From sequence record NC_052657.1: a stretch of DNA of 64,000 bases. One strand, written 5' to 3'. The notes under the pieces were generated by a model, which ran no database searches, had not been told where the DNA came from, and worked only from the letters and a program-made list of their open reading frames with translations. Source of the DNA: Escherichia phage muut. Below are positions 8,323 through 8,405 of the stretch, in pieces (the first letter of the stretch is position 1; each line of letters begins with the position of its first letter). The position numbers and the translations under genes were made by a program.

Positions 8323-8405
8323 TGGCAGCAAGGTGAGGAATCGAACCCCCTGATCTATGGTTTGGAGCCATATTGAGTACCATACTCTTTTAAATCTACC
8401 CGGCT
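8323..8405 (-). tRNA. tRNA-Trp-like (anticodon CCA), non-canonical 5-prime region
   Basis: T arm, CCA end and anticodon arm TATGG-CTCCAAA-CCATA at standard spacing; 5-prime acceptor strand imperfect and D region has extra nt. Confidence 0.35.

Follow-up and report, generated by a model that had tools for sequence, protein, structure and literature searches.

The closest precedent for the element described here is found among the irregular (8/4) tRNAs, with 8 base pairs (bp) in the acceptor stem and 4 bp in the T stem. The text of Mukai et al. 2017 (PMC5389517; reviewed in PMC7609411) presents 8/4 tRNAs with an 'extra loop' (E-loop), found in metatranscriptomes of peat and forest soil, and it also mentions 8/4 tRNA-Ser and tRNA-His in bacteriophages. 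Allo-tRNA variants of the 8/4 and 9/3 types were tested there in an E. coli reporter and in in vitro charging assays, in passages which deal mostly with inactive variants. The 8/4 split is already known. We have studied a stretch of 64,000 nucleotides (nt) from Escherichia phage muut (sequence record NC_052657.1), which we will call the window. On its minus strand, in positions 8323–8405, it has an 83-nt element which is far more than chance. Judging from sequence comparison, it is probably the phage's own functional elongator tRNA-Trp(CCA), built on a non-canonical scaffold.

We will start with the features which this element has in common with known tRNAs. Like the E-loop tRNAs it has 8 bp in the acceptor stem, 4 bp in the T stem and extra nucleotides between the acceptor and D stems (PMC5389517, text). 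Unlike them it has all the major Trp identity elements and occurs in cultured coliphages; the published E-loop example has a GCU anticodon and U73 and comes from putative Acidobacteria, in a comparison of descriptions rather than of sequences. In the text on the E-loop tRNAs the extra loop is not said to pair with the variable region. The phage (8/4) tRNA-Ser and tRNA-His and the allo-tRNAs share with our element the 8/4 split of a 12-bp branch, a D stem which is long but has a tiny loop, and a place in phage tRNA clusters. However, allo-tRNA and tRNA-Ser carry a long variable arm which is absent here, and the same text has no Trp species, no connector and no fifth helix. In tRNA-Sec (Rfam RF01852) the acceptor stem is also long, and a tiny loop closes a D stem of 6 bp; but its anticodon is UCA, its branch has 13 bp (8/5 or 9/4) and its variable arm is long, while the element has CCA, 12 bp and a short variable region.

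Canonical tRNA-Trp(CCA), as found in E. coli trpT and in two 7/5 phage genes (L386, L456), has the same CUCCAAA loop, G73, A1:U72, T loop and CCA end. The connector of the element, UAGNUUUAA, is similar to U8-A9-G10...A14-A15 in the canonical D arm of L386. The canonical molecule differs by its 7/5 stems, by a 4-bp D stem closed by nt 22–25 and by a 5-nt variable loop without a Watson-Crick helix. Mitochondrial tRNAs which lack the D arm, such as Ascaris mitochondrial tRNA-Ser (PMC7609411), are similar in that a connector replaces the D-arm wiring; they are truncated and flexible, whereas the element is longer than normal and keeps a GG hairpin and a full T arm. In the literature searched, which included the text of Mukai et al. 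but not every journal, we have found no report of an 8/4 tRNA-Trp, of this element in phages of the phi92, Felix-O1 or rV5 types, or of an extra loop that pairs with the variable region.

The region is 99.8% identical to the phi92-like Justusliebigvirus phages (Stephanstirmvirinae). It has a tRNA cluster on the minus strand (8242–11279), in which ARAGORN finds 15 tRNAs and Rfam 14; an Rfam call at 10828–10906 is missed by ARAGORN. The element lies in a 146-nt gap between tRNA-Met (8464–8542) and tRNA-Ile (8242–8317), where ARAGORN and Rfam at its gathering score give no call. The same gap is without annotation in the phi92 RefSeq record and in phiWec187. The best Rfam match for the element is tRNA-Sec, with 22.4 bits (gathering score 47, E=0.035); with the general tRNA model RF00005 it also stays below the gathering score, at a lower value than the tRNA-Sec match. 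Neither program calls another tRNA-Trp in the window. A 2025 study of Justusliebigvirus BME3 with tRNAscan-SE 2.0 and ARAGORN lists 16 tRNAs and none for Trp, and no tRNA-Trp was called in the Justusliebigvirus genomes searched with these two programs (PMC12210895). The element is always on the strand of the surrounding phage tRNA cluster, and no tRNA-Trp is called in the stretches examined. One case is a Stephanstirmvirinae-like uncultivated viral genome (UViG) of 148.7 kb, L008: its 23 tRNAs serve 19 amino acids and Trp alone is missing.

With blastn we have found an 86-nt stretch conserved in 61 GenBank phage records; the upstream spacer is not conserved. By name they include 44 Escherichia phages, 3 Justusliebigvirus, 4 Campylobacter phages, 3 Klebsiella phages, Citrobacter Tr1, 2 Hafnia phages and 'Listeria' LPML1; the two Hafnia phages and LPML1 are Ounavirinae. 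The element is unannotated in all 61 records. Pattern scans of IMG/VR and JGI metagenomes gave, among the matches listed, L008, L304, L332 and L050, the last being a contig from a JGI metagenome. At least 12 distinct core sequences are available, from Stephanstirmvirinae, Ounavirinae and metagenomes: each has 83 nt and they align without gaps. Looser relatives are found in three phage subfamilies and in metagenomes. The element was not matched in 5,426 complete E. coli genomes.

A covariance model trained on 11 of the 12 core sequences gives 86.5–104 bits for all 12 (89.8 for L332 and 86.5 for L050, with 93–104 for the others). Ordinary tRNAs reach at most 48 bits in one search, and two canonical 7/5 tRNA-Trp have 50–51 bits. 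The looser relatives lie at 49–77 bits: Pectobacterium phage POP15 (Certrevirus) has 66.7, Klebsiella phage BIS47 (Mydovirus) 65.9, E. coli phage mistaenkt (Suspvirus) 48.8 and, among the UViG matches listed, L418 has 76.9 and L442 has 56.5. The core is cleanly separated from ordinary tRNAs by its score, but the looser relatives are not.

The folding energy of single sequences is no better than that of shuffled ones (z-scores +0.24 and −0.10), and the case therefore rests on comparative data. A cloverleaf-like model has 92.5% of its cells paired, against 40–51% in slid controls, with changes on both sides in 15 of 23 pairs. When a fifth helix is included, the figures for the 12 core sequences are 91.7% against 41–48%, with compensatory changes in 17 of 27 pairs. 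This predicted fold of five helices is shown by its covariation. Read from 8405 to 8323, the parts of the element are AGCCGGGU, AGAUUUAAA, AGAGUA, UGG, UACUCA, A, UAUGG, CUCCAAA and CCAUA, followed after the anticodon arm by GAUCAG, GGGG, UUCGAUU, CCUC, ACCUUGCU, G and CCA.

The acceptor stem is formed by nt 1–8 (AGCCGGGU, 8398–8405) and nt 72–79 (ACCUUGCU, 8327–8334). Pairs A1:U79 and G2:C78 are invariant, while 3:77, 6:74, 7:73 and 8:72 change on both sides. In the window there is a C4×U76 mismatch and a G5·U75 wobble; pair 5:75 is G·U in 10 of the 12 core sequences. Pair 8:72 is formed in all 15 sequences compared and occurs in five types (UA, AU, CG, UG and GC). A canonical 7/5 parse was tried and performs worse than 8/4: its 49:65 pair fails in 12 of 15 sequences and forms in 3 of 11. 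RNAalifold independently gives the 8/4 arrangement, with which the acceptor/T branch keeps its standard 12 bp. The T arm (nt 57–71, 8335–8349) has a 4-bp stem, GGGG/CCUC, which is always paired, and the loop UUCGAUU, of the TTCRANY type. It is followed, beyond the acceptor strand, by the discriminator G (8326), invariant in 15 of 15 sequences, and by an encoded 3' CCA (8325–8323). AGCCGGG(U) is the only 5' strand found to pair with the 3' acceptor strand. A second candidate, CAAGG (about 8425), pairs with 5 nt of that strand, but was rejected: homology with distant phages begins at 8407 and AGCCGGGU covaries with its partner.

The preliminary description of this stretch had noted a T arm, the CCA end and a well-formed CCA-anticodon arm at standard spacing; all of these are present on the minus strand, and the anticodon stem is a perfect one of 5 bp. 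It also stated that no segment pairs cleanly with the 3' acceptor strand and that the best candidate leaves extra nucleotides and one mismatch; this agrees with the C×U mismatch and the 9–10 extra nt before the D hairpin. A standard acceptor stem which might have been overlooked was searched for and does not exist, as judged by pairs 8:72 and 49:65.

Nucleotide −1 (window position 8406) can pair with the discriminator G73 (8326): 11 sequences have U·G here and LPML1 has C-G, and the RNAalifold fold includes the pair. Judging from these sequences, it might affect where RNase P cuts, and with that the 5' end of the mature RNA.

The D-like hairpin (nt 18–32, 8374–8388) has a stem of 5–6 bp and a YGG triloop, here UGG (8382–8380). 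All of its six pairs change on both sides; the outermost one, 18:32, is a mismatch in the phi92 clade. G25 and G26 never vary. The hairpin is self-contained and is placed after a 9-nt connector. A canonical D stem was also considered, but G10–U13 have no conserved partner after the hairpin. Purine 33 (8373), which is the equivalent of tRNA position 26, precedes the anticodon arm (nt 34–50, 8356–8372). The 5-bp stem of this arm is paired in all sequences and four of its five pairs change on both sides; its loop, CUCCAAA, is invariant, with U33, the anticodon CCA (8365–8363) and the purine A37.

The fifth helix, which we call helix X, joins the two parts which remain. In the connector, A9 (8397) is an unpaired and invariant column between the acceptor stem and helix X; nt 10–12 (GAU, 8394–8396) form the 5' strand of this helix, and the junction strand U13 U14 W15 A16 A17 (UUAAA, 8389–8393) has four invariant columns out of five. 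The connector as a whole, ARNUUUWAA, is more conserved than the stems. The 3' strand (nt 52–54, AUC) lies together with nt 51 in the would-be variable loop (8352–8355), so that G10-N11-U12 pairs with C54-N53-A52. The variable region has 6 nt, three of them in helix X, and there is no long variable arm. Pair 11:53 has the highest mutual information (1.78 bits) of all column pairs in the alignment: it is paired in 12 of 12 core sequences (AU four times, GC five, CG two and UA one) and in 15 of 15 overall. Pair 12:52 is U-A in the whole core. Pair 10:54 is G-C, but Klebsiella phage KP13-26 has a double change to A-U. In distant relatives 10:54 and 11:53 stay paired, also with other types such as U-A and C-G. 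A simple example is given by the Hafnia phages SarahDanielle and Zyzzx, whose elements have only four differences: they amount to compensatory changes in 11:53 (U-A to C-G) and 18:32 (U-A to G-C). Purine 33 varies together with nt 51 (mutual information 0.98), an A being matched by G or A and a G by U, as in the canonical pair 26:44.

The topology is nested and can be written as acceptor [ A9 helix X ( UUWAA – hairpin – R33 – anticodon arm ) A55 R56 – T arm ]. Helix X extends the 3' strand of the anticodon stem, at the place of the D stem and with inverted strand connectivity; the hairpin branches off where helix X meets the anticodon stem. This helix had previously gone unnoticed, and the 'extra' connector is no loose loop. 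The preliminary description had considered a 5' insertion, which is well supported as the extra nucleotides are fixed in length and strongly conserved. What it did not notice is that the extra nucleotides of the 5' half pair with the variable region as a fifth helix.

These data bear on two simple alternatives. A decaying tRNA pseudogene could be missed by tRNA finders and could have a mismatch in its acceptor stem, as is the case here. However, the length is fixed at 83 nt without insertions or deletions in the 12 core sequences, each of the five helices shows compensatory changes and the loops do not vary. We reject the degenerate tRNA offered as one option in the preliminary description, since covariation is seen in every helix and the identity elements stay the same in three phage subfamilies; we give decay a very small probability. 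The conservation might also come from a small protein-coding gene, as a few records (for example Nernie, J-01 and Tr1) have a coding sequence for a hypothetical protein over the region. But the open reading frames (ORFs) which overlap the element have only 23–67 codons, in several frames, and the substitutions follow base-pair compensation and are not codon-like. This origin is hardly credible.

We now turn to the amino acid identity. The CCA anticodon and the discriminator G73 are invariant in 15 of 15 sequences, which bears out the tRNA-Trp(CCA)-like assignment initially made, and A1:U72 is present in 14 of 15. Position 5 is G in most sequences, but it forms G·U instead of the minor element G5:C68. 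In the co-crystal of E. coli tryptophanyl-tRNA synthetase (TrpRS) with its tRNA the major determinants are the anticodon and G73, the minor ones are A1:U72 and G5:C68, and the enzyme contacts nothing but the anticodon and base pairs 1–5 of the acceptor stem (PMC12135181). For this reason a rewired core should not block charging.

A functional elongator tRNA-Trp would work in the following way. The RNA would be transcribed together with the neighboring tRNAs; RNase P would cut between U−1 and A+1, and trimming over the 5-nt spacer would follow, up to the encoded CCA. The GG of the triloop would dock on the conserved T loop and form the tRNA elbow, giving an L-shape for the whole molecule. The host TrpRS would charge it through the CCA anticodon, G73 and A1:U72, and EF-Tu would then carry it to read UGG during infection. 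As to the irregular tRNAs, Mukai et al. in 2017 reportedly found some of the 8/4 and 9/3 types to be active in translation.

Several observations weigh against such an elongator. Helix X has only 3 bp, or 2 bp in the more distant relatives, and is not predicted by RNAalifold. Acceptor base pair 4 has a conserved Y×U mismatch, with a pyrimidine mismatch 4:76 in 9 of the 12 core sequences. The sequences represent about 8–10 independent lineages and not hundreds. Finally, according to the text of PMC5389517, an E-loop 8/4 tRNA was not charged by the E. coli enzymes tried, though it had a different identity.

The main rival is a tRNA-like RNA which is made and perhaps charged, but does not decode: it might be a decoy for a host nuclease which attacks tRNAs, a ligand of TrpRS or RNase P, or an element for processing or regulation of the tRNA operon. 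The core is indeed strongly non-canonical, and a protein-binding site could explain why the connector is better conserved than the stems. According to the text of PMC5389517, some of the irregular 8/4 tRNAs were charged without being used in translation, or were not charged at all. On the other hand, a decoy has no need for all the major TrpRS determinants, an exact 12-bp branch, an invariant 7-nt loop and the CCA end together, and in L008 the element supplies exactly the amino acid which is missing in a cluster of 23 tRNAs. We consider this rival rather unlikely.

By analogy, the element might also be a tRNA-Trp whose changed D region relaxes decoding, so that it reads UGA as well, for programmed read-through. 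The Hirsh suppressor of E. coli tRNA-Trp, a D-arm change, is said to read UGA. Changes in the D arm of tRNA-Trp(CCA) permit such reading and here the whole D region is replaced, but this is analogy only. Of the 85 long ORFs in the window, 15 have TGA as their stop codon; the next in-frame stop follows after just 0–20 codons, and no split genes joined by TGA are found. We judge this use quite improbable, and an elongator tRNA-Trp which reads UGG remains our preferred reading.

The inverted wiring may not be restricted to this family. At least the two core pairs of helix X are found in the 8/4 tRNA-Trp-like genes of Mydovirus, Suspvirus and two UViGs (one with three pairs, one with two and a G·U); in Certrevirus POP15 the pairs depend on the placement of two gaps. 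It is conceivable, and we suggest it with some reserve, that the element is the founding example, and one open to experiment, of a structural class in which the D stem of phage tRNAs is inverted: nt 10–13 pair on the 3' side of the anticodon arm and not with nt 22–25, and the GG of the elbow comes from a separate module.

Two other genes should be described here. In an IMGVR UViG (L450, positions 2120–2201) we have found an uncalled 82-nt tRNA-Cys-like gene, with a GCA anticodon, U73, 8/4 stems, an 8-nt connector and a hairpin with a GG loop. Its helix X has four Watson-Crick pairs, and it belongs to a cluster of 20 tRNAs without a called tRNA-Cys. Just upstream (2030–2104) ARAGORN reports a 'tRNA-???' with a 2-nt anticodon.

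The second gene is in the window itself, in positions 10825–10906 of the minus strand, and is another non-canonical tRNA. It has a 7-bp acceptor stem, no D arm, a 7-nt connector (UAUCUCA), a UCU (Arg) anticodon, G73 and an encoded CCA, and 23 nt separate its anticodon arm from its T arm. Rfam scores it as a tRNA with 38.6 bits, ARAGORN misses it and it is unannotated in phi92. The CUC of its connector pairs with a GAG on the 3' side of the anticodon arm in six of six sequences, with one compensatory change in a Streptomyces phage. This tRNA-Arg(UCU)-like gene appears to have the same wiring as helix X, in a permuted form. A match to it occurs in 673 phage records, and in 239 of these it covers 80% of the gene or more (Felixounavirus, Justusliebigvirus, Klebsiella phages, Asteriusvirus and a Streptomyces phage). 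Most of the full-length matches listed are unannotated; one is annotated as 'tRNA-OTHER'.

Other unusual tRNA genes were met in the same searches. Vibrio phage D51 (L339, about 136–209; OZ196642.1) has an unannotated 74-nt 8/4 tRNA-Trp(CCA), in which the 8-bp acceptor stem is followed at once by a 4-bp D hairpin with a UGG triloop; both the connector and helix X are lacking. This gene may be a less elaborate relative of the family. A tRNA-like sequence in another UViG (L333:8645–8727, minus strand; IMGVR_UViG_3300044606_000144) has a canonical T arm and 32 bits with model R1; at the site of the anticodon arm a 6-bp stem closes a 5-nt loop, UACCA, and there is no obvious acceptor pairing. L008 has in positions 9301–9375, within its cluster of 23 tRNAs, an ARAGORN tRNA with a CTA anticodon ('tRNA-Pyl'), similar to an amber suppressor.

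The surroundings of the element are compact on one side. tRNA-Ile begins 5 nt downstream; towards tRNA-Met there is a 56-nt spacer (8408–8463, minus strand), outside the conserved element, and homology with distant phages begins at about 8407. In phage SD2 (L327:1–197, PQ821640.1) this spacer is replaced by an HNH homing-endonuclease gene which ends 4 nt upstream of the element, and in Salmonella phage UAB_1 the homology is likewise lost upstream. Consensus matches outline a putative transcription unit on the minus strand (8110–9504). Its pattern-based order is a sigma-70-like promoter (9504–9475), tRNA-Gly, Gln, Pro, Phe, Leu and Met, the element, tRNA-Ile and a terminator-like hairpin (8128–8110). 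Four sigma-70-like promoter patterns are scattered through the tRNA cluster on the minus strand, at 9475–9504, 10777–10806, 10918–10946 and 11583–11612; all have a perfect TTGACA, a 17–18-nt spacer and an extended −10 (TG). Their spacing suggests that the cluster may be split into several transcription units. A possible promoter inside the connector was rejected: its TAGATT lies 22 nt after TTGACA, which is a wrong spacing, and the hexamer is not conserved in other clades.

The records themselves show some peculiarities. In SarahDanielle (L005, MW749010) and Zyzzx (L326, MW749004) one locus-tag number is skipped at the element (SARAHDANIELLE_94 and ZYZZX_93), which suggests that annotators once had a feature there and later dropped it. 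Four 'Campylobacter phage' records (MG065639, MG065645, MG065656 and MG065689) are 99.8% identical to coliphage Justusliebigvirus over a 1.2-kb query; 'Listeria phage LPML1' (OK283618) is classed in Ounavirinae, and it shares 92% identity in the element with a Hafnia phage. The host attributions of these Campylobacter and Listeria phage records look doubtful.

Phages of the phi92, Felix-O1 and rV5 types are widely sequenced as therapeutic and model phages. Their published tRNA lists, obtained with tRNAscan-SE and ARAGORN, do not contain the element, and these inventories would be corrected by a tRNA-Trp which is conserved and seems complete. The element would test how much of the core formed by the D arm and the variable loop is needed by the ribosome, EF-Tu, RNase P and TrpRS, and it would give a compact new scaffold for the engineering of orthogonal tRNAs. 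If true, the rewired L-shape might be selected to evade host nucleases or modification enzymes which recognize the tRNA core. If such RNAs decode, they are a second natural solution to the tRNA L-shape, and phage tRNA censuses systematically under-count: amino acids which seem to be absent from phage tRNA sets may be served by tRNAs which current finders overlook.
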